A stretch of 51,520 nucleotides of DNA from NCBI GenBank assembly GCA_964433975.1, contig CAYSSS010000003.1, positions 1-51,520 of the forward strand, given 5' to 3'. Source of the stretch: an uncultured Planctomycetia bacterium. Its GTDB lineage: Bacteria; Omnitrophota; Gorgyraeia; 2-01-FULL-45-10. Every line of letters starts with the position of its first letter. Position 1 is the stretch's first letter. Below the pieces are notes generated by a model that was not told where the DNA came from, made no database searches, and worked only from the letters and a program-made list of their open reading frames with translations. Below are positions 11,426-24,978 of this stretch, one piece after another. The position numbers were made by a program, and so were the translations under genes.

Positions 11426-11442
11426 TGGCACGAATACTGCTT
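11426..11442 (+). promoter_or_regulatory. Sigma-54 (-24/-12) promoter
   Basis: TGGCACGAATACTGCTT against the consensus TGGCACG-N4-TTGCW. GG and GC have correct spacing and there is one mismatch. It sits in a 360-bp gap ahead of the small ORF, sugar transferase and PEP-CTERM genes. A sigma-54 activator is encoded in the same locus. Confidence 0.7.
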
Positions 11443-11477: not shown

Positions 11478-11594
11478 ATGAAGAAGATGATGGAGTCACT
11501 GAAAGAGATGCTGGACGGGATTATGCACGAGATAGATGTGTATATGACGATACAGCGGTATCAGCGCAACACAAGAAAGTACAAGAGCGCCTAA
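11478..11594 (+). CDS. 38-codon small ORF (leader peptide or small protein)
   Basis: GGAGGAG lies 8 nt upstream of ATG 11478. Product is MKKMMESLKEMLDGIMHEIDVYMTIQRYQRNTRKYKSA. The TAA stop abuts the transferase ATG in the same frame. Confidence 0.45.
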   Translation: MKKMMESLKEMLDGIMHEIDVYMTIQRYQRNTRKYKSA

Positions 11595-12254
11595 ATGCCA
11601 GAACCAACTACTATCGCACTGGTAAGCACCGGATTTGTGGGGTTCATCACGCAATACGCCAGGAGGCATTTTCGAGAAGTCAAGAAGGCGCTTGACCTCA
11701 GCATGGCCGGAGTCGGTATCGTAATGGCCACTCCTGTAATTTTTCTTGCAGCCATAGTGGTAAAGATCGTATCGCCCGGTCCCGTATTTTTCAAACAGGA
11801 GAGAATGGGCTGGGGAGGAAAGCGTTTTTATATTTACAAGCTGCGGACGATGCGCGTAGACGCGGAAAAAAATACAGGTCCCGTTTGGGCTAAGGAAGAC
11901 GATCCTCGTTTAATAAAATTCGGCAAGCTTATAAGAAAGCTGCATATCGATGAGCTGCCGCAATTATTCAACGTATTGAAGGGTGACATGAGCATGGTAG
12001 GCCCGAGGCCTGAAAGGCCTGTGTTTGTCCAGAAGCTCAGTAAAGAAATTTTAGATTATCGCAAAAGAATGAACGTAAAGCCGGGCATCACGGGTCTAGC
12101 GCAGGTATGGCATAAGTATGATGAGACGATAGCCGATGTTCGCAAGAAGGTAAAGTACGATCTCCTCTATATAAGAGAGATGTGCCTTATGGTGGATGTA
12201 AGGATTTTATTGCGAACTATACTAGTATCGGCTCAAGGAAAAGGGGCTAGGTAG
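11595..12254 (+). CDS. Bacterial sugar transferase (PF02397, PglC/WbaP-C-type phosphoglycosyl transferase) with an N-terminal PEP-motif extension
   Basis: Contains VSPGPVFFKQERMG..FYIYKLRTM, DELPQLFNVLKGDMSMVGPRPE and KPGITGLAQV. The first 26 aa are MPEPTTIALVSTGFVGFITQYARRHF. Confidence 0.9.
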   Translation: MPEPTTIALVSTGFVGFITQYARRHFREVKKALDLSMAGVGIVMATPVIFLAAIVVKIVSPGPVFFKQERMGWGGKRFYIYKLRTMRVDAEKNTGPVWAKEDDPRLIKFGKLIRKLHIDELPQLFNVLKGDMSMVGPRPERPVFVQKLSKEILDYRKRMNVKPGITGLAQVWHKYDETIADVRKKVKYDLLYIREMCLMVDVRILLRTILVSAQGKGAR

Positions 12255-12967: not shown

Positions 12968-13723
12968 ATGAAAAAAATAATAACGCTTTTAAGCTTGATC
13001 GTTGCCGGTTTATTTTTTATGGCTTCTTATGCAAATGCCAGCATAATCGCTAATGGCGACATGAGCGATTGGGGCGTTACTCCGGGCGTCTGGGGTACTC
13101 CTAATATGTGGGTTCCGAACAATGGCGCTATATACAACCCCGAAGACCAAAACACAGACAAGCTCGGGCCTGGTTATGGCGGTCAGAAGTTTGATGCCGA
13201 AGCAATATACTTTGTAAGAGAAAATGGATATGTTTGTGTAGCTATAGTAACCGGACATCCTGCCGGTGGATATGGAGGTCATTATCCCGGAGATGTATTT
13301 TTTAACTTCGGAGCAGGTATGGAATATGGCCTTGAAACCACAGGTACAAATGCGGGAAGGCTTTATAAAAATCCTGTATGGAACATGAGTTCGTACTGGG
13401 GAAGTTTAAATTCCGAGACCACTATGCAAGACGGGACCTGGGAAAAGGATATGGGTTTAGCTGGGTTTGCGTATGCGTTTACCTATGACGGGGCTGGCGT
13501 TAGCAATGATCACTGGGTTATTGAGATGAAAATACCCAATAGCTTTTTCGGCGATAATTGGAATGATAGCGGAACGGTACATTGGACCGAGACATGCGGG
13601 AATGATGCAATTGATCTGGACTTTCCATCTACTCCCGTTCCGGAGCCGGCGACGATGTCGCTTTTGGGGCTTGGATTGGCGGGGTTGATTGGAGCAAGAC
13701 GGAAAAAAATAAGGAGAGAATGA
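12968..13723 (+). CDS. PEP-CTERM sorting-domain protein 2
   Basis: Signal peptide (..MASYANA/SI). C-terminus VPEPATMSLLGLGLAGLIGARRKKIRRE. Confidence 0.9.
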   Translation: MKKIITLLSLIVAGLFFMASYANASIIANGDMSDWGVTPGVWGTPNMWVPNNGAIYNPEDQNTDKLGPGYGGQKFDAEAIYFVRENGYVCVAIVTGHPAGGYGGHYPGDVFFNFGAGMEYGLETTGTNAGRLYKNPVWNMSSYWGSLNSETTMQDGTWEKDMGLAGFAYAFTYDGAGVSNDHWVIEMKIPNSFFGDNWNDSGTVHWTETCGNDAIDLDFPSTPVPEPATMSLLGLGLAGLIGARRKKIRRE

Positions 13724-14601
13724 TGAAAATGGCAGCGCTTCTTGGAGTAATGATAGTCTTGTCAATGCTAGTAGTCATTCCTCCATCATTGTACGCACAA
13801 GCTGATAGCTGTATTATTTCCACAAATGACGACGGAAAGAGTAAGGACGAAACCCTGAGCTTCAAAAACGAAGACCTACTCAAATACGTCCCCTCAACCA
13901 GCATTCTCAGCATGTATCTGGACGCGGATTCGCTATTCAAGAATGATGAGAATATTGATGCGTTACACATCCTATCCGATGGAAGTATTATATTCTCGAC
14001 CGGCGGCGACGGGAAGAGTAAGGACGGAACCCTGAGCTTCAAAAACGAAGACCTACTCAAATACGTCCCATCAACCAGCATTCTCAGCATGTATCTGGAC
14101 GCGGATTCGTTGTTTAAAAATGATGAGAATATCGACGCACTGTATATCTTTTCCGATAACAGCATTATCTTTTCTACCGGCGGCGACGGAAAGAGTAAGG
14201 ACGAAACCCTGAGCTTCAAAAACGAAGACCTACTCAAATACGTCCCCTCAACCAGCATTCTCAGCATGTATCTGGACGCGGATTCGCTATTCAAGAATGA
14301 TGAGAATATTGATGCGTTACACATCCTATCCGATGGAAGTATTATATTCTCGACCGGCGGCGACGGGAAGAGTAAGGACGGAACCCTGAGCTTCAAAAAC
14401 GAAGACCTACTCAAATACGTCCCATCAACCAGCATTCTCAGCATGTATCTGGACGCGGATTCGTTGTTTAAAAATGATGAGAATATTGACGCACTGTATA
14501 TTAACGAAACCAATAAAGTGGTTCCTGAGCCGGCGACGATGTCGCTTTTGGGATTGGGATTAGCGGGATTATTGAGATTCAGAAAGAAGAAGCTGTTATA
14601 A
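13720..14601 (+). CDS. PEP-CTERM sorting-domain protein 3, built from four 59-aa repeats
   Basis: Signal peptide (..PPSLYA/QA). Four copies of DGKSKD(E/G)TLSFKNEDLLKYVPSTSILSMYLDADSLFKNDENIDAL.. C-terminus VPEPATMSLLGLGLAGLLRFRKKKLL. Confidence 0.9.
   Translation: MMKMAALLGVMIVLSMLVVIPPSLYAQADSCIISTNDDGKSKDETLSFKNEDLLKYVPSTSILSMYLDADSLFKNDENIDALHILSDGSIIFSTGGDGKSKDGTLSFKNEDLLKYVPSTSILSMYLDADSLFKNDENIDALYIFSDNSIIFSTGGDGKSKDETLSFKNEDLLKYVPSTSILSMYLDADSLFKNDENIDALHILSDGSIIFSTGGDGKSKDGTLSFKNEDLLKYVPSTSILSMYLDADSLFKNDENIDALYINETNKVVPEPATMSLLGLGLAGLLRFRKKKLL
13831..14501 (+). repeat. Coding tandem repeat: 177-bp unit in two alternating variants, giving a 354-bp super-unit present ~1.9 times
   Basis: GACGGAAAGAGTAAGGACGAAACC recurs at 13831 and 14185 (offset 354). 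The two super-units differ at about one position by eye (aatatCgac vs aatatTgac). Confidence 0.9.
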
Positions 14602-16048: not shown

Positions 16049-16261
16049 AGTCTGATGCGATGCGCCATACGGGAGGATGCTTGAACCAGTAGGCATGCTT
16101 ACGTGGTGAGAGCATAAGACCGCAGGTTTTATGTTCTCCCACCGCAATCATAATACTATATTCTGTACTGTGGGGCAGGTGAAGACCTGCCCTGCAGTAT
16201 AATAGGGCTGGCTTTTTCCTTTACTTAACTCAGGTTTAGGGTATAATACCAATCTACTCAT

Positions 16262-18000: not shown

Positions 18001-18037
18001 CAAGTTTTCGCTTGATTTATAAGATGGATGTGATAGG

Positions 18038-18322
18038 ATGAATGGAAATAATAATGGCAACGGAAAGACGCGTCTAAAAAAATTGACGCTGATGGGAAGG
18101 AAGTACCGAGGTATCATAAGTGAGATATCCAATCCCATAGATTCGACGAATCGGTTCATAAACCTTGCGTTGAATACAGTTGGGGATAATTCACAAGGAA
18201 GACAGTTCCTTCTGGAATCGAAGCAGGGGATCAGGAAGACGGCGGTTTTACTTAAAAGATTGAATGATTACTCGCAGAAGATAGAGAAAGAGATACTGGA
18301 GATGGCAAAGACAAATGGATAA
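18038..18322 (+). CDS. 94-aa DHp (HisKA)-like protein lacking the phospho-acceptor histidine
   Basis: RGIISEISNPIDSTNRFINLAL resembles the NtrB-type H-box (aHEIrNPL..i..f..L) with Ser28 in the His position. The second helix (GIRKTAVLLKRLNDYSQ) resembles DHp helix 2. There is no ATPase domain. The stop overlaps the activator start by 8 nt. Confidence 0.55.
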   Translation: MNGNNNGNGKTRLKKLTLMGRKYRGIISEISNPIDSTNRFINLALNTVGDNSQGRQFLLESKQGIRKTAVLLKRLNDYSQKIEKEILEMAKTNG

Positions 18323-19694
18323 ATCTCGGGTTCTTATAGTTAGCGGTGATAAGCTTACACAGAGATCCTTATACGAGCTGATATGCCGGCATGGCTATGA
18401 GGCGGCCATTACGCATTCCGTTAATGATGTCATGGCTCATCTCGATGAGAAGCTATGCCATGTCATCCTGGCTGATATAGACGGGGCTGATGACGTAGAG
18501 GTATTGAAGCTCATCAAGGATAAGGGGTATCCTTCTGAGATAATAACGATGGCCTCTCACGCCGATTCAATCGATAATATGAGCGATCTGGGTGCCGATT
18601 GTCTCATAATGCCGGTAGAAGACAAAAAGATACTCTCCTCGATCGAAAAGGCCTTATTAAAGGTATCCCACACCGAATCAAGACAGTCATTCCTGACGAA
18701 ACTACTCCATAAAGAGAGCACATTCCATGATCTAGTTGGGCAGAGCCAGTCCTTTAAAGATATATATTCTCTAGTAGACCGCATATCGAGCTCCAAGGCA
18801 ACGGTCCTTTTGCGCGGTGAGAGCGGCACGGGTAAGAGGATGGTGGCCAGAGCGATACATAAGGCTGACAAGAAGAGACGCGATAAGCCTTTTATGGAGA
18901 TATCCTGCGGGGCTCTTCCGCGCGATATCATCGAAAGCGAGCTCTTCGGCCACACGAAGGGGTCTTTTACGGGAGCCATAAATGAGCGCAAGGGGCGTTT
19001 TGAGTTGGCCCATGGCGGAACGGTCCTACTGGACGATATAGACTCTTTCTCGCTCGACCTGCAGGTAAAGCTCTTAAGGGTGCTCCAGCATAAGGAGTTC
19101 AAAAGGGTAGGGGACCACAAGACGATCAAAGTCGATGTCCGCTTCATAGTATCTACCAACCAGGACCTGGAGAAGGCGATAGCGGAGAAGAAGTTCAGGG
19201 AGGACTTATACTACCGCCTGAACGTCATATCTATCAATATTCCGCCATTAAGAAGCCGCAAAGAAGATCTTCCTCTATTAGTGAATCACTTCATGAGCCT
19301 TTATTCAAAAGAGAACCATAAAAAGATAAAACGCGTCTCTGATGAGACTATGCAGGTGCTGATGAACCACAGCTGGCCTGGAAACGTGAGAGAGCTAGAA
19401 AATATAGTGGAACGCGCCGTTATACTTGATACGGATGGCCTGATAGAGATCGACGATTTGCCTGAGCTATTAGTAGGTAGCACAATAGTCTATGCCGATA
19501 CGAGGATAAACAAGAATACGGGCGATGCCGTATCTTTGAAGGACGCTCTTAAAGAGCCTGAGATGGTATATATATTGAAGGTGATGAAAGAGGTGGGATG
19601 GAACAAAAAGAAGGCCGCCAGAAAATTAGGCGTCAACAGGACAACGCTCTATAATAAATTAAAGAAGTATAATCTTTTAGCCGAAGCAAAATAG
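18315..19694 (+). CDS. Sigma-54-dependent transcriptional activator (NtrC family; PrsR-like) with a degenerate receiver domain
   Basis: Receiver-like N-terminus. AAA+ core with GESGTGK, ELFGH, GSFTGA (GAFTGA loop) and FREDLYYRLNV. C-terminal Fis-type HTH AARKLGVNRTTLYNKLKKY. Confidence 0.9.
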   Translation: MDKSRVLIVSGDKLTQRSLYELICRHGYEAAITHSVNDVMAHLDEKLCHVILADIDGADDVEVLKLIKDKGYPSEIITMASHADSIDNMSDLGADCLIMPVEDKKILSSIEKALLKVSHTESRQSFLTKLLHKESTFHDLVGQSQSFKDIYSLVDRISSSKATVLLRGESGTGKRMVARAIHKADKKRRDKPFMEISCGALPRDIIESELFGHTKGSFTGAINERKGRFELAHGGTVLLDDIDSFSLDLQVKLLRVLQHKEFKRVGDHKTIKVDVRFIVSTNQDLEKAIAEKKFREDLYYRLNVISINIPPLRSRKEDLPLLVNHFMSLYSKENHKKIKRVSDETMQVLMNHSWPGNVRELENIVERAVILDTDGLIEIDDLPELLVGSTIVYADTRINKNTGDAVSLKDALKEPEMVYILKVMKEVGWNKKKAARKLGVNRTTLYNKLKKYNLLAEAK

Positions 19695-19711
19695 ATAAGG
19701 CATAATAAATA

Positions 19712-20773
19712 ATGTTGTACAAAGATCTAAGCTTGGCGGGTCTTGTAAATCTCGAAGATTGGCAGAAGATACAGGATTCTTTCTCCGAAGCCCTCGAAGT
19801 AACCTTAAGGACCGTTTCCCTGGACGGCAAGCTACTCACCAAAATAAGCAGTCCTAGCAGGTACTCCAGCGAAATCATTCCAAAGATCAAAGACCAGGAT
19901 AATTTCTACGGGAACGATAAGCCTGAGGATGTCCAAAAGAAGCTCTCACAGGCCGCCCAGACCGGAGGCAGTATTAAAATGCCTTTCGGCGTGGAAATCT
20001 TTGTAATCCCGATAAAAGCGATCGGCAACAGGGATGTAGCCTATATGACGATAGGGCCGATCATCCTGAAGAGCCGTAAGGCCGATGCCGAATATGCCAA
20101 AGAGGCGCTAGAGGCAGGGATAAATATTGACGAGCTTACAGACGCCCTTATTGATATAAATGTATTTTCCTATAGTAAGGTATATTCTCTTGTAGGCCTT
20201 ATAAAAGACATATTTTCACATATGGCTCAGACAGGCTACCATAAGAAGAGGCTGGGAGAGATAGCTCCCGAGGTCGTAGAGCTCGACCCGCTATTTTCAA
20301 AGTACTATGAAGAGAAGATATTGAGCGCGATGCTTAAGACCTGCTCTTTGGCACTTAACGCGGACTCTGGCTCCGTGATGATAGTGGATAAAGCGACCGG
20401 GACTTTACATATAAGAGCCGCTTCAAAGCTCGATGATAAGATAGTCAATAGGACCAGTATAAAGATAGGGGAGGGGATAGCAGGACTTGCGGCGGCTACA
20501 GCAAAGCCTATTATACTGCCTCAAGACAAGGATAAGAACGGTCTTTCAGCTAAGATGAGAAGGGCCGATATAAGATCATCTATGATATTGCCTTTCAATA
20601 AAGGCGACAGCCATGACGTCTATGGCGTAATAAACCTCAATATCACGCGAAAGAATACCGCTTTTTCGGAAAGAGACATCTCTGTAGTAAAAGAGCTGGT
20701 CAATATGACCAGCATCGCATTAATTCCTCTGTATCAACAGCATCTCAATTCGGATTCTTCGAAAATAAAATAG
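19712..20773 (+). CDS. Sensor protein: PocR-like N-terminal domain plus C-terminal GAF domain, no output domain
   Basis: N-terminus LEDWQKIQDSFSEALEVTLRTVSLDGKLL is PocR-like but lacks the usual Cys residues. The C-terminal ~150 aa are GAF-like (ADSGSVMIVDKATGTLHIRAA..IGEGIAGLAAATAKPIIL..VINLN). Confidence 0.6.
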   Translation: MLYKDLSLAGLVNLEDWQKIQDSFSEALEVTLRTVSLDGKLLTKISSPSRYSSEIIPKIKDQDNFYGNDKPEDVQKKLSQAAQTGGSIKMPFGVEIFVIPIKAIGNRDVAYMTIGPIILKSRKADAEYAKEALEAGINIDELTDALIDINVFSYSKVYSLVGLIKDIFSHMAQTGYHKKRLGEIAPEVVELDPLFSKYYEEKILSAMLKTCSLALNADSGSVMIVDKATGTLHIRAASKLDDKIVNRTSIKIGEGIAGLAAATAKPIILPQDKDKNGLSAKMRRADIRSSMILPFNKGDSHDVYGVINLNITRKNTAFSERDISVVKELVNMTSIALIPLYQQHLNSDSSKIK

Positions 20774-20786
20774 AAAACATCGAATG

Positions 20787-21227
20787 TTAAAAAGAGATGA
20801 TGTCTCTTGATTCCATCTCCTTTCTTTCTTCGGTTGTGGGTAAGATAACATTCTTATCCTGAAGTACATCGGACTGATCTTTTTCAGCATCCATCTCAGG
20901 CGGGTTTTGTTGGGTGTCTTTTTGCTCCGCCTTTCGTTTCAGCCTCTCTTTATCGATTTGGGCGCATAACTCTTTATATGCTGTGCGCCTATCCTCGGCC
21001 TTCTTCGCGCTATCCTCTAATTCTTGTGGTGTTGGAATAGCGTTGGCTGGTATGCTGTAGCTCATGGGCACCCCTCCTTCGGTTGCGCCGGTATCCCACG
21101 CCGGGGACGATGTCGCTCGCGTGCTTATAGGGGTGCTGTCTTTAAGGACGTTTTCCATGTAGACAACCATAAATACAATGAATATTAAGACTATGATGAC
21201 CGCGATAGTAAAGTTTCTGATATTCAT
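20787..21227 (-). CDS. Membrane-anchored charged protein of unknown function (last gene of the pseudopilin operon)
   Basis: 146 aa. N-terminal TM IAVIIVLIFIVFMVVY, then a Lys/Glu-rich tail. Confidence 0.55.
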   Translation of the reverse strand: MNIRNFTIAVIIVLIFIVFMVVYMENVLKDSTPISTRATSSPAWDTGATEGGVPMSYSIPANAIPTPQELEDSAKKAEDRRTAYKELCAQIDKERLKRKAEQKDTQQNPPEMDAEKDQSDVLQDKNVILPTTEERKEMESRDIISF

Positions 21228-21245
21228 TTAAGGATCGCTCCCATT

Positions 21246-22514
21246 TTAGTACTCTTCCCACAGGACTTTTAGATAGACTATCCTGCCGTTACTGTCTCTC
21301 GATGGTGGAAAATATACCGGAGCCGCGAAAGCCAGCCTCTCATCATAATTATAGTCCTTGGTGTATCCGCTGATCCTGTCCCCTGTAGTGGCGTTAAATG
21401 TGCCTATAGGACCTCTTCTTTTCTGAGTGATGCCACCTAATATTGTCAAGGTCCCTTTGAGACCGAAAGTATAGTCCGCTACCGCGAAAGAACTATTTAA
21501 CGCTACTATATAAGCGTCGATCTCGATATTGAATGGAGCAGAGGAGTCGACATAGACATTATTCTGAGATACAAGCGCAAGCATGTCGGTGCTCGCGGGG
21601 TTTGTTTCTGGGTCATTGGCATACAATATGTTATTGACAACATAGATATTGTTGTTGGTCCCGACAGTTAGCTGACCGTTGAGTACGCCGGATATGTCCA
21701 CGTAGCCGTCATTAACAAAAAGAGCGTTATTCGTAGGCAATGGGACATTATAATTGACCCAGCTGTTATTGAAATTTGTAACGTTTATAGTCCCATCGGA
21801 GAGCAGCGTTACTATTGAATTTCCGGTTAAATACAACCCACCGGTTTGCTGTGCCGCGGTTTTTAAGGGAGTTATCAGGTCCATTGATGTCGGCAAAGAT
21901 ATGGAGGGAGCGCCAAGAGTAAGAGAACCCATGAAATCTGGATCGTCTTCCGGGGGGCCTCCGTGATAATAATTGATTTCAGGGTCGGTGCTGGATACAG
22001 GGCCGTTGAATGTAGGGTCTCCCGAAATATTTAGCTGGTCGTTGCTATGGAACGGACCGTTCAGAACGTCCCCGGTTATGAACCATATCGGCCTTAGGCC
22101 CCACCAGTAAAGCAGATCCTCGTTGTTGCTTAAATACCCGAACCTGGCGCACGATATCTGCCTGAGAGTCAAAGAGACGCTTTTGCTCATGCCTTTATAT
22201 ATGCCAGTGGAATATAACCTATATATAGGGAAGATGCCGCCCTGTATTTGCGATGCTGTAACCGAATATGTCCCGGATAAACCGCTTGCGAGCGTAAATG
22301 TTCCGGATGTAGAGCCGGTATTTCCTTCACGCAGGTCCATAAATTTTTTGGCGAGCCCCGCTTCAGCGATTTGGTGCGCTCTTATAGCGTTACAGGTCGA
22401 ATATGCCGCGGAGAGGTCATTTGAGCTGATAAGAAAGATAGCGCCTATGATGAATATGATAAGCGACGTTACGAGCATTGTGAAGAGCAGCGCGAAGCCT
22501 TTTTGTCTTTTCAT
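21246..22514 (-). CDS. Large PilX-like minor pseudopilin
   Basis: 422 aa. N-terminus MKRQKGFALLFTMLVTSLIIFIIGAIF is a PilX-N-type hydrophobic segment without Glu5. Sits in an operon with two classical prepilins. Confidence 0.65.
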   Translation of the reverse strand: MKRQKGFALLFTMLVTSLIIFIIGAIFLISSNDLSAAYSTCNAIRAHQIAEAGLAKKFMDLREGNTGSTSGTFTLASGLSGTYSVTASQIQGGIFPIYRLYSTGIYKGMSKSVSLTLRQISCARFGYLSNNEDLLYWWGLRPIWFITGDVLNGPFHSNDQLNISGDPTFNGPVSSTDPEINYYHGGPPEDDPDFMGSLTLGAPSISLPTSMDLITPLKTAAQQTGGLYLTGNSIVTLLSDGTINVTNFNNSWVNYNVPLPTNNALFVNDGYVDISGVLNGQLTVGTNNNIYVVNNILYANDPETNPASTDMLALVSQNNVYVDSSAPFNIEIDAYIVALNSSFAVADYTFGLKGTLTILGGITQKRRGPIGTFNATTGDRISGYTKDYNYDERLAFAAPVYFPPSRDSNGRIVYLKVLWEEY

Positions 22515-22521
22515 AATTAAT

Positions 22522-23058
22522 CTATTTTGGCGTATTTCTTAAATTGACATATGTTGACAGTGACCCAGAAACAGTGCCGCCGCCTATTTGTCTGGAAACA
22601 GAAATGTAGATTCCCACGGTCTCGTTATCGACATACTCAACCGGCTTCCAAAAACGCAGCGTGATGCTTGCGTCAGTGGGGGCGGTATATAGAGTTCTTT
22701 GCGATGGAAATAGTATGGGGCTTGCATAGACCACGGATTTACCGTTTAGAAAGTATCTTCTTGACTGGTTATCCGTACCGGTAAAGTCTATCTCGCTTCC
22801 CGTGGGGTTGACAACCGGAATGGTGAAAGATACAGCGCGGCGCAGCCCGGACATATCCGAACCTTCCTGTCTGCCGCGTATAATTTTTTGAAGAAGAACA
22901 TTCACATCTCTTTGCAGGTTTGCCGCTTCAAGGGTGGTGGTAAATATTGTCCTTGAGGTTATGAAGGTGCCATAGACAGATCCAAGTAATAGCACGGCCA
23001 CAACGCTCGCAACCAGAATCTCCGTTAACGTAAATCCGCTGTCTTTTGGTCTCATCAA
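22522..23058 (-). CDS. Prepilin-type N-terminal cleavage/methylation domain protein (minor pseudopilin, PilW-like)
   Basis: KDSG/FTLTEILVASVVAVLLLG is a canonical G/FTLxE prepilin signal. Confidence 0.8.
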   Translation of the reverse strand: MMRPKDSGFTLTEILVASVVAVLLLGSVYGTFITSRTIFTTTLEAANLQRDVNVLLQKIIRGRQEGSDMSGLRRAVSFTIPVVNPTGSEIDFTGTDNQSRRYFLNGKSVVYASPILFPSQRTLYTAPTDASITLRFWKPVEYVDNETVGIYISVSRQIGGGTVSGSLSTYVNLRNTPK

Positions 23059-23063
23059 ATATC

Positions 23064-23489
23064 CTAATTAGCCTGTGGATCGTTGGCGATATAGGTCCCG
23101 AGATACTCCCTGAACGTCTTGGTCTTTCCAAACAATAATTCGTTCCACCTGAGCTCAACAACCACTTTCTTATAGTACTGGGAAGGACTGGTGACGGTTA
23201 CCACCTGCGTCCCAGTAAAGTCATCTGTATAATTGTCGGGAGTGCCCCTCGAGTCGATGCTGACTGTTGATGTAGCGCTAATAATACTGGCGAAGGGTTT
23301 CCTGCGTAGATCTTCTATGGCTCTTTGCATAACATGGATAGACTGGACCTTGTGCCTTGCCAGGGAAGAGCCGATCTTGCTCATTACCATGACTTCGACA
23401 GTCGCCAGCCATACAAGCGTCAGAAGCGCAACGCTTAAGACAACTTCAGTCAGAGTTAATCCCGACCTATAACTACGTTTTGAACTCAT
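23064..23489 (-). CDS. Prepilin-type N-terminal cleavage/methylation domain protein (minor pseudopilin, PilV/GspH-like)
   Basis: YRSG/LTLTEVVLSVALLTLVWL prepilin signal. 141 aa. Confidence 0.8.
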   Translation of the reverse strand: MSSKRSYRSGLTLTEVVLSVALLTLVWLATVEVMVMSKIGSSLARHKVQSIHVMQRAIEDLRRKPFASIISATSTVSIDSRGTPDNYTDDFTGTQVVTVTSPSQYYKKVVVELRWNELLFGKTKTFREYLGTYIANDPQAN

Positions 23490-24070: not shown

Positions 24071-24099
24071 TTGACATATTGCATCTCGTGAGGTATATT
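24071..24099 (+). promoter_or_regulatory. Sigma-70-type promoter placed for a leaderless or near-leaderless transcript of the LAGLIDADG gene
   Basis: TTGACA (24071-24076), 17-nt spacer, TATATT (24094-24099). ATG 24106 lies 6 nt after the -10 box and no SD is visible. Confidence 0.45.
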
Positions 24100-24105
24100 T
24101 CAGAT

Positions 24106-24978
24106 ATGACAAGAGATTTAAGATTAAGGTTGAACAGGGATGAATTACACAGGTTATATCTAGTAGAGAAGAGGTCTCTCGAGGATATAGCTCGATTATA
24201 CGGGACATCCAGGGTTGCTGTCTGGAAATATTGTAAATCTGAGCGCATTACAAGACGCGACAGATCTGACGCGAGATTAGAGGCGCAGAAAAGGGGAAAA
24301 GTTTCTCAGGGTTATTTTGATATTAATGAGAACTTTTTTAGTTCATGGTCCTCGGAAATGGCTTATATTTTAGGTTTAATCGCTACGGACGGCTGTGTTT
24401 CTAAGTCTGGTTCCGTGTCGCTTTGTATCAATGATAAGGATCTGTTGGAAAAGGTTAAAAATGTTATGGGTTCAGCCCATACAATAAAATATTATGGTCA
24501 TCAGAAGGGACTATATAGTTTTAATTTTTCAAGACAAAAGTTATGCGCCGATTTAAAGCAACTCGGAATCCTTCCTAATAAAAGTCTTAATATACGATTT
24601 CCCGATGTTCCGGATGCCTTTTTGGTTGACTTTGTCAGAGGAGTTTTTGATGGAGACGGATCGGTATTCTTTGAAAAAAGGAGTCCAAAATTTCCGCTAA
24701 GGGCAAGCTTTATTAGTAGTTCTAAGGAGTTTATTGTTACGTTAGAATCTAAGCTTAGGGCATTGGGGATGCCTCAGAAAAACATTTGGCAACAACCAAC
24801 TAAAAACAGTATTTCATTTATCTTAAGGTATGCCCATAAAGATAGTGCTAAATTATTCAAAATTCTTTATCAAAATCTAACAAAAAATAGCATATTTTTA
24901 ATTCGAAAATATGAGCGTTTTTTACAGGGCATTCAACAATCTGAGGGAAGTCAACCAAAAACAGGAGGGGCTATTTAA
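24106..24978 (+). CDS. Free-standing double-motif LAGLIDADG homing-endonuclease-like protein with an N-terminal HTH
   Basis: Two LAGLIDADG motifs (AYILGLIATDGCV and FVRGVFDGDGSVF). N-terminal HTH-like segment RSLEDIARLYGTSRVAVWKY. The TTG 24079 start would lie inside the promoter. Confidence 0.8.
   Translation: MTRDLRLRLNRDELHRLYLVEKRSLEDIARLYGTSRVAVWKYCKSERITRRDRSDARLEAQKRGKVSQGYFDINENFFSSWSSEMAYILGLIATDGCVSKSGSVSLCINDKDLLEKVKNVMGSAHTIKYYGHQKGLYSFNFSRQKLCADLKQLGILPNKSLNIRFPDVPDAFLVDFVRGVFDGDGSVFFEKRSPKFPLRASFISSSKEFIVTLESKLRALGMPQKNIWQQPTKNSISFILRYAHKDSAKLFKILYQNLTKNSIFLIRKYERFLQGIQQSEGSQPKTGGAI

Follow-up and report, generated by a model that had tools for sequence, protein, structure and literature searches.

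How is a sigma-54-dependent activator controlled when its receiver has lost the metal-binding pocket and no kinase ATPase domain is encoded nearby? The question is raised by three adjacent genes in a 51,520-nucleotide (nt) stretch of DNA, hereafter the window, from an uncultured member of the Omnitrophota (GenBank assembly GCA_964433975.1, contig CAYSSS010000003.1, positions 1 to 51,520). The genes encode a protein of 94 amino acids (aa), a sigma-54 activator and a PocR-GAF protein, and they lie downstream of exosortase and PEP-CTERM genes. A preliminary description of the window had seen in them a two-component module taken apart, in which a His-less DHp protein and a GAF sensor act as separate subunits and govern the activator by contact instead of phosphorylation. 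Based on profile searches, alignments and comparison of related loci, we propose with moderate confidence that the three genes are a phosphotransfer-dead, derived form of a three-protein regulatory module that occurs at Omnitrophota exosortase/PEP-CTERM loci.

Results

What is the 94-aa protein? Standard libraries do not recognize it: nothing was found at E<=1 in Pfam or NCBIfam, and the Pfam HisKA model (PF00512), which the preliminary description had put forward as the test, matched none of the 37 family members in the alignment with the threshold relaxed to E<=10. Searches of PDB sequences with phmmer and with profiles were likewise insignificant, ZraS (E 0.66) being aligned in the correct register. 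A profile of the family, run against 1.84 billion representative proteins, retrieved 168 at E<=1e-3; apart from short members, the hits are 250-700 aa long and align through their central part, and kinases among them reach E values down to ~1e-11 in this library. All ten long matches that were checked are kinases or kinase fragments in which the Pfam HisKA region coincides with the profile match, nine of them with a GAF domain and eight with a recognizable HATPase_c. Kinase P0137 displays the full layout, with GAF at residues 34-171, HisKA at 209-271, the family-profile match at 197-270 and HATPase_c at 317-420. BLASTP aligns it with the window protein over 68 ungapped residues (34% identity, E 6e-14), placing S28-E29-I-S-N32-P33 opposite H217-E-L-N-N-P. 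The same register emerges from hhalign, which compares the family with 23 kinase DHp segments over 71 ungapped columns (probability 99.6%, E 1.7e-23) and sets the invariant kinase His column against the N/S column of the short proteins. The AlphaFold2 model is a two-helix hairpin (helices 8-47 and 52-93; mean predicted local distance difference test score, pLDDT, 85.1), whose top Foldseek matches in the PDB are histidine kinases. ZraS is superposed with a TM score of 0.70 and a root-mean-square deviation of 1.1 A, at an E value of only ~0.1 because the hairpin fold is too simple, so that structure alone is indecisive. These alignments identify the 94-aa protein as a homologue of the DHp (HisKA) domain, as the preliminary description had supposed, and as the stub of a GAF-HisKA-HATPase_c kinase.

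The position of the phospho-acceptor His is taken by Ser28, also as supposed; from the rest of the H-E-x-x-N motif, E29 and N32 are retained. Among 130 members of the family the acceptor column has N in 94, S in 21, D in 7, G in 4 and H, T, E or K in one each. The contrast with the kinases is sharp: His stands there in 174 of 175 long kinases with an equal motif and in 1 of the 130 stub-family members. This single member, P0018 (97 aa, on a 500-bp contig that ends before the receiver is reached), reads GIIHEISNPID and could represent either a return to His or an intermediate stage. The stub family comprises 188 clusters, every member 76-124 aa long, which are unnamed or annotated ‘hypothetical protein’. 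It has 23 invariant columns among sequences down to ~50% identity, centred on GIINELxxPIDSTNRFINLAL...NSQGRQFLLESKQGIRKT. Many of the invariant residues fall in two places, PIDSTNRFINLAL directly past the His column and the first part of helix 2.

The stub is under strong purifying selection and is not a pseudogene. In its 72-codon core the proportion of synonymous differences (pS) is saturated at 0.71-0.95, while that of non-synonymous differences (pN) is 0.08-0.32, which argues against a pseudogene; the corresponding rate ratio (dN/dS) against the closest relative is 0.04, and the 14 pairs short of saturation have a median of 0.10. In 24 unique complete modules, the stub core averages a pairwise identity of 0.62, the receiver 0.44 and PocR-GAF 0.56; the AAA+ domain averages 0.75 and the DNA-binding end of the activator 0.67.

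The receiver has decayed as well. Pfam Response_reg scores 23.0 bits on the activator N-terminus, below its cut-off of 30.2 bits, and PDB receivers match residues 4-126 at E values from 2e-6 to 1e-3; the domain is homologous and divergent. Used alone as a query for further homologues, the receiver brought in only 4 proteins, from which nothing more was gained. Alignments with CpxR, PmrA and YycF in HMMER and with CheY in MAFFT agree with one another. S10-G11 stand at the Mg2+-binding acidic pair (CheY D12, D13), A80 at the conserved Thr/Ser column (CheY T87) and M99 at the Lys column (CheY K109), the following Pro100 being retained. D54 is kept at the acceptor Asp column (CheY D57), and two residues are missing from the beta3-alpha3 loop. 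The preliminary description had made these four assignments by eye and had allowed that a proper alignment might restore the conserved residues; they remain substituted, and all four are borne out. The best conserved element of the pseudo-receiver is alpha1, with a conservation of 0.78 against 0.41-0.50 for alpha2-alpha4. It reads QRSLYEL in the window and L.QKSLYEL or QKSLYEL in most relatives.

Is the loss of the His linked with the loss of the pocket? We compared 44 unique stub-receiver pairs from genomes and metagenomes with three kinase-type loci (L006, L020 and L021). In all three of the latter the H-box has its His, and the receiver combines E-D at the acidic pair and the acceptor D with T, K and a D-x-R-L-P loop of full length. 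In the stub-type pairs the His is absent throughout, only 2 of the 44 receivers retain both acidic residues, and the beta3-alpha3 loop is shortened in 43. The acceptor Asp persists in 38, with S, E or G in the other six; the Thr column reads A in 18, T in 15 and S in 11, and the Lys column R in 25, K in 17 and M in 2. The window receiver is among the most degenerate of the stub-type set. This pattern indicates that kinase and receiver decayed together. Three features of the activator follow the same split: the linker, Walker B and the sigma-54-contact loop. In the comparison of the window with loci L001-L062, the receiver-AAA+ linker of kinase-type activators is coiled-coil-like, F(E/D)xR(K/E)(L/I)xxENxxLK, whereas in stub-type activators it is replaced, mostly by a Pro-containing segment (~18650-18735 in the window, residues ~113-140). 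This replacement hints that the usual mode of repression by receiver dimers was given up. Walker B has DD in the window and in 11 other stub-type activators (12 of the 13 tabulated, that of L012 being unreadable), and DE in kinase-type L006 and L020, L021 being unread. The contact loop is G(A/S)FTGA in stub-type and GAFTSA in kinase-type activators. Because the equivalent PspF E108D variant still activates transcription on duplex DNA, reportedly like the wild type and with reduced ATPase (PMC4132715), the window activator, which has Walker A, a GSFTGA loop and an HTH_8 domain, should still work.

The kinase-type loci also reveal where the stub-type module probably came from. On L006 the order is Bac_transf, small genes, PEP-CTERM, TPR, kinase P0137, sigma-54 activator and the start of a PocR-like gene. 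L020 (Omnitrophica RIFCSPHIGHO2_02_FULL_46_11, GCA_001804055.1) and L021 repeat this order with a complete PocR-GAF gene, and L021 has in addition exosortase and EpsI upstream and rpoN downstream. By its named members, the kinase family belongs to the Omnitrophota. The best L020 matches of six window block proteins are collinear: Bac_transf (55% identity), membrane protein (27%), TPR protein (28%), activator (44%), PocR-GAF (24%) and the stub, which matches the DHp of the L020 kinase at 32% (E 8e-12). Both types thus share a DHp 32-34% identical with the motif PLD..R(Y/F)xNLAL...(Y/F)LL, the gene order near Bac_transf, PEP-CTERM and exosortase genes, PocR-GAF and an upstream sigma-54 promoter. 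The window differs in lacking the kinase GAF and ATPase domains, the His, the acidic pair, two loop residues, Thr and Lys, and in its replaced linker, its Walker B DD and a shorter TPR protein (291 aa, against 475-485 aa in kinase-type loci). Since an intact module occupies the collinear position in other Omnitrophota, the window module is best read as the derived state and the kinase-type module as the ancestral form, still present in the phylum.

Could the missing parts of the kinase be encoded elsewhere in the neighbourhood? The claim that no open reading frame (ORF) of the window carries HATPase_c is confirmed by two routes. Pfam detected none in real-looking ORFs of at least 120 aa or in four opposite-strand ORFs, and for a profile of the catalytic and ATP-binding (CA) domain derived from 80 sister kinases, the best score among the 875 segments of the six-frame translated window was 5 bits, against 168.6 bits in the control locus L020. 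A six-frame search with the DHp profile gave a sole match at 18023-18319 (59.5 bits, E 1e-17), and no frameshifted debris of the GAF or ATPase domain lies beside the stub gene. In relatives L001, L003 and L005, on contigs of 104-268 kb, no kinase ATPase domain occurs within 10 kb on either side, the L005 search ending at the contig end 4.5 kb downstream.

The third protein had been described as a PocR-like and GAF sensor with no output domain. Both domains score above their Pfam cut-offs, and no further domain was matched in the Pfam scan, which corroborates this. The candidate explanation that it is the detached GAF domain of the kinase was rejected: an orthologue stands beside intact kinases, and its likeness to the kinase GAF is merely generic (E 2e-6, compared with E 5e-33 at 24% identity to the L020 orthologue; no similarity to P0137 was detected). 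Because loci with an intact kinase carry PocR-GAF too, it is an older third component of both stub-type and kinase-type modules. What had been called a module taken apart is thus so in one respect, in that a DHp persists with no kinase ATPase domain; the notion of DHp and GAF as split subunits of one kinase does not survive.

Where would the activator act? A scan of the whole window for the sigma-54 consensus gave 16 matches where 17 are expected, which is not above chance. One promoter-like site, TGGCACGAATACTGCT, has a single mismatch to TGGCAC-N5-TTGCW and lies in the gap upstream of Bac_transf, the head of the PEP-CTERM gene row, with a 38-codon ORF (11479-11595) in between. Exact TGGCAC-N5-YTGCW occurs once per locus, on the plus strand, in seven fetched loci, six of them independent (L001, L005/L010, L006, L011, L020, L021), stub-type and kinase-type alike. 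It lies upstream of Bac_transf in L001, L020 and L021, at the called Bac_transf start in L006 and upstream of a membrane-protein gene in L005/L010; in five of the six independent loci (L011 not placed) it therefore either shortly precedes the first gene of the operon or coincides with the called start of that gene. It is this conserved position, not the number of matches in the window, that gives the site weight, and the site is likely a target of the activator.

Genomic context

The features of the module are collected in Table 1. The stub and activator genes overlap by the 8 nt noted in the preliminary description, ATGGATAA, and the gap between the TPR gene and the stub gene is only 37 nt. 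The three genes close a conserved five-gene block that begins with a multi-pass membrane protein, for which Pfam and NCBIfam gave no family match and which has a counterpart of ~283-289 aa at the equal position in L001, L003 and L005. The TPR gene is syntenic in all of these relatives. The stub-type arrangement recurs in all examined loci, and a receiver-bearing reading frame follows the stub in every locus of sufficient extent. Upstream of the module lie genes for glycosyltransferases, a polysaccharide deacetylase, exosortase, EpsI, the Bac_transf sugar transferase, five PEP-CTERM proteins, the membrane protein and the TPR protein; the remaining genes of the window are housekeeping genes.

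Table 1. Positions in the window of the regulatory module, its domains and motifs, and associated features
Feature	Position	Strand	Basis or remark
Sigma-54 promoter-like site	11426..11441	+	One mismatch to consensus; gap upstream of Bac_transf
Multi-pass membrane protein, 288 aa	16262..17128	+	Gene 1 of conserved five-gene block
TPR protein with N-terminal anchor, 291 aa	17125..18000	+	Gene 2 of block; TPR_19, TPR_21 and TPR_14 matches
DHp-only gene (stub), 94 aa	18038-18322	+	ORF list
Ser28 codon, AGT	18119..18121	+	Phospho-acceptor His column; E29 and N32 retained
Sigma-54 activator gene, 459 aa	18315-19694	+	ORF list
Pseudo-receiver domain, activator residues ~1-118	18315..18668	+	HMMER and MAFFT alignments
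S10-G11	18342-18347		Acidic-pair columns
D54	18474-18476		Acceptor Asp column
A80	18552-18554		Thr/Ser column
M99	18609-18611		Lys column
Sigma-54 AAA+ domain and lid	18732..19475	+	Sigma54_activat 225.1 bits; AAA_lid_14 98 bits
Walker A, GESGTGK	18816-18836	+	Activator motif
GAFTGA loop, reads GSFTGA	18960-18977	+	Activator motif
Walker B, VLLDDID, residues 237-243	19023-19043	+	Activator motif; DD not DE
Fis-type HTH_8 DNA-binding domain, residues 413-452	19551..19670	+	54.2 bits
PocR-GAF gene, 353 aa	19712-20773	+	ORF list
PocR, residues 11-176	19742-20239	+	Pfam 60.9 bits (cut-off 23.9)
GAF, residues 201-337	20312-20722	+	Pfam GAF_2 52.1 bits (cut-off 28.6)

Ahead of the membrane-protein gene there is a terminator-like hairpin (16189-16208, plus strand), followed, within 16189-16247 (plus strand), by a sigma-70-like promoter, TTTACT-16-TATAAT (10/12), so that the five-gene block may also have its own transcription. 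Within the upstream row, the PEP-CTERM gene at 13720-14601 (plus strand) has an apparent internal repeat, with identical promoter-like matches 354 bp apart (13962 and 14316), and its product gives odd low-complexity Pfam matches. Downstream of the module, four minus-strand genes fill 20787-23489. Of these, one carries a prepilin-type N-methylation motif, another matches DUF4900 below threshold, and no family was matched for the remaining two. The row keeps its synteny with the module in L001, and part of it can be seen in L009. A free-standing ORF that resembles LAGLIDADG_3 homing endonucleases follows at 24079-24978 (plus strand), a few kb from the module, and one is likewise found downstream of the module in the distant relative L005 (13922-14707). 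The GC skew changes sign near 26 kb, at the peak of the cumulative skew, and gene orientation turns from plus to minus between ~20.8 and 25 kb, which gives the region from ~20.8 to 26 kb a convergent, terminus-like pattern.

The named relatives are Candidatus Omnitrophota without exception. Four bins that carry this Omnitrophota-specific module (L008, L009, L012 and L016) are titled ‘uncultured Planctomycetia bacterium’, probably a taxonomic mislabel.

Discussion

Based on these comparisons, we propose a model for the origin and working of the module. On this lineage the kinase gene was trimmed to its DHp hairpin, with the GAF and ATPase domains and the acceptor His lost, and the receiver shed the metal-binding acidic pair and two loop residues and, in the window, Thr and Lys as well. 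The His, the ATPase domain and the metal pocket are lost and yet the stub is kept, so the activator is probably controlled by protein contact, and control independent of phosphorylation is the best reading of the module. This part of the preliminary description stands, resting on the His-less DHp, the missing pocket and the lack of a kinase ATPase domain nearby; its picture of a split kinase working through DHp and GAF subunits has to be given up. The stub may still dimerize as a four-helix bundle. In co-crystal structures of kinases with their regulators, the face that follows the His and the start of helix 2 meet receiver alpha1; given this arrangement, the invariant residues of the stub and the conservation of alpha1 suggest that the stub docks on the pseudo-receiver through the surface used by its kinase ancestor. 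Binding of the stub would then set the assembly of the activator into its active ring. PocR-GAF, as the sole ligand-binding module that remains, would supply the signal, and the output would be sigma-54 transcription from 11426-11441, a site followed by the sugar-transferase and PEP-CTERM genes. The stub could be a brake on the activator or an aid to it; we lean towards a brake that is relieved by PocR-GAF. We see an even chance that a His-less protein, reduced to the DHp of a kinase, now serves as the dedicated, stoichiometric regulator of the activator that was once its substrate, reusing the old docking interface and reading PocR-GAF.

What speaks against control by contact alone? The acceptor Asp is retained by most receivers, both acidic residues are intact in two of them, and the phosphatase motif E-x-x-N/S of the stub family is largely kept, with E at +1 in 103 and N or S at +4 in 120 of 130 members; the Asp and this motif together leave some room for residual phospho-chemistry. 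Conservation of alpha1 would also be expected from receiver homodimers alone, and its value depends on element limits that we take to be those of the CheY secondary structure. Walker B DD could mean an altered or weak ATPase activity. The search for a kinase, in turn, covered the window and the 10-kb flanks of three relatives, so that Asp54 might be phosphorylated by a distant orphan kinase or by acetyl phosphate, with the stub serving through E-x-x-N as phosphatase or co-factor. The His of P0018 would fit such a persistence of phosphorylation. The near-universal loss of the acidic pair and shortening of the loop, the absence of Thr and Lys from the window receiver, the six receivers with S, E or G for Asp and the kinase-free neighbourhoods, as far as the contigs extend, make it distinctly unlikely.

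Two other explanations concern the stub itself. It might act on a different partner, forming mixed, dominant-negative dimers with the DHp of a paralogous kinase, holding the AAA+ domain as PspA does PspF, or serving as an adaptor of PocR-GAF. DHp domains dimerize by nature, inhibitors of AAA+ activators that work in trans are known, and Omnitrophota possess paralogous kinases with very similar H-boxes (e.g. P0149, P0143 and P0222). We nonetheless rate this as rather unlikely, in view of the receiver frame that follows the stub wherever the locus is long enough, the 24 unique complete stub-activator-PocR-GAF modules, the 8-nt gene overlap in the window, the many invariant residues on the docking face with alpha1 as the top-conserved receiver element, and the receiver domain having been kept instead of deleted. 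Alternatively, the 94-aa ORF might be a functionless remnant of a decaying kinase, with the activator constitutive or under PocR-GAF alone; its shortness, the want of a family annotation and the variable acceptor column (N, S, D, G) would suit such a remnant. An ORF held at intact length in 188 clusters, with invariant columns, saturated synonymous sites at low pN, a higher conservation than that of receiver or PocR-GAF and no kinase debris at its side, renders this very improbable, and on the invariant columns, pN/pS and the identity ranking we rejected the pseudogene reading.

How does the proposed contact control relate to known systems? Control of sigma-54 activators by a partner protein, independent of phosphorylation, is already known as a kind. 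In Caulobacter crescentus, FliX controls FlbD, a sigma-54 activator with a degenerate receiver; its receiver lacks key phosphorylation residues, there is no cognate kinase, and a small partner binds directly in trans (PMC3096577), which resembles what we propose for the window. FlbD-FliX governs flagellar genes, however, not surface polysaccharide, and the partner in the window is demonstrably a kinase DHp; the window activator scores 298 bits against the NCBIfam FlbD model, whose cut-off is 750. NifL is derived from a kinase and controls the sigma-54 activator NifA by stoichiometric contact, not phosphotransfer. It keeps PAS sensors and an ATP-binding GHKL domain, and the regulatory domain of NifA is a GAF, whereas in the window nothing but the DHp is left of the kinase, and the domain it would partner is a pseudo-receiver. 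The kinase DesK can switch on DesR with no phosphoryl transfer, by contact with the alpha1-alpha5 surface of the regulator (PMC4251995). There, as we propose here, DHp docking activates the regulator allosterically; in the window this would be the sole remaining function, while DesK is a complete working kinase whose docking effect adds to phosphotransfer, and DesR is of the NarL type, not a sigma-54 activator. Two further parallels come from FleQ of Pseudomonas, a sigma-54 activator of polysaccharide genes whose receiver-like domain is not phosphorylated and which is controlled by its partner FleN, and from DivL of Caulobacter, a His-less kinase that signals through regulator binding. FleN is a ParA-like ATPase and DivL keeps the full kinase architecture; unlike the window stub, neither is DHp-only.

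The preliminary description had set the module beside PrsK and PrsR. In the Prs system of proteobacterial PEP-CTERM loci, a sigma-54 activator, a TPR protein and a sigma-54 promoter accompany exosortase, PEP-CTERM and polysaccharide genes (PMC1569441). The framing proves loose, and membership was rejected on the NCBIfam equivalog cut-offs, which neither the activator nor the sister kinase reaches. The activator scores 332.6 bits against PrsR (TIGR02915, cut-off 502.6), over residues 91-454 only, and the sister activator 407.8; the sister kinase scores 105.6 bits against PrsK (TIGR02916, cut-off 300), over the transmitter part only, and is soluble where PrsK is transmembrane. The TPR protein did not match the PrsT model (TIGR02917) in the NCBIfam scan, in which the best matches are AtoS/AtoC-like and ZraS/ZraR-like. 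The module would seem to play a role analogous to that of PrsK/PrsR at an exosortase locus.

What are the implications of a two-component pair of this kind? Neither the stub family nor a DHp-only partner of a sigma-54 activator was found described in the literature searched, and neither was the combination that seems new here: a conserved His-less, DHp-only stub with a pseudo-receiver, whose intact, ancestor-like module survives in sister lineages. As standard profile libraries miss the stub family, counts of two-component proteins in Omnitrophota omit its 188 clusters. Two-component systems are usually seen as phosphotransfer devices, and here the chemistry is gone from both partners. The long retention under selection of the DHp hairpin and the receiver fold despite this loss argues that the docking contact conveys regulatory information in its own right, which experiments have demonstrated for DesK-DesR. 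With intact and reduced forms at the same locus, domain swaps could separate the effect of docking on a sigma-54 activator from that of phosphorylation. If the model is true, the Omnitrophota would offer, within one phylum, a natural before-and-after pair for the effect of a DHp domain on a receiver beyond phosphotransfer.

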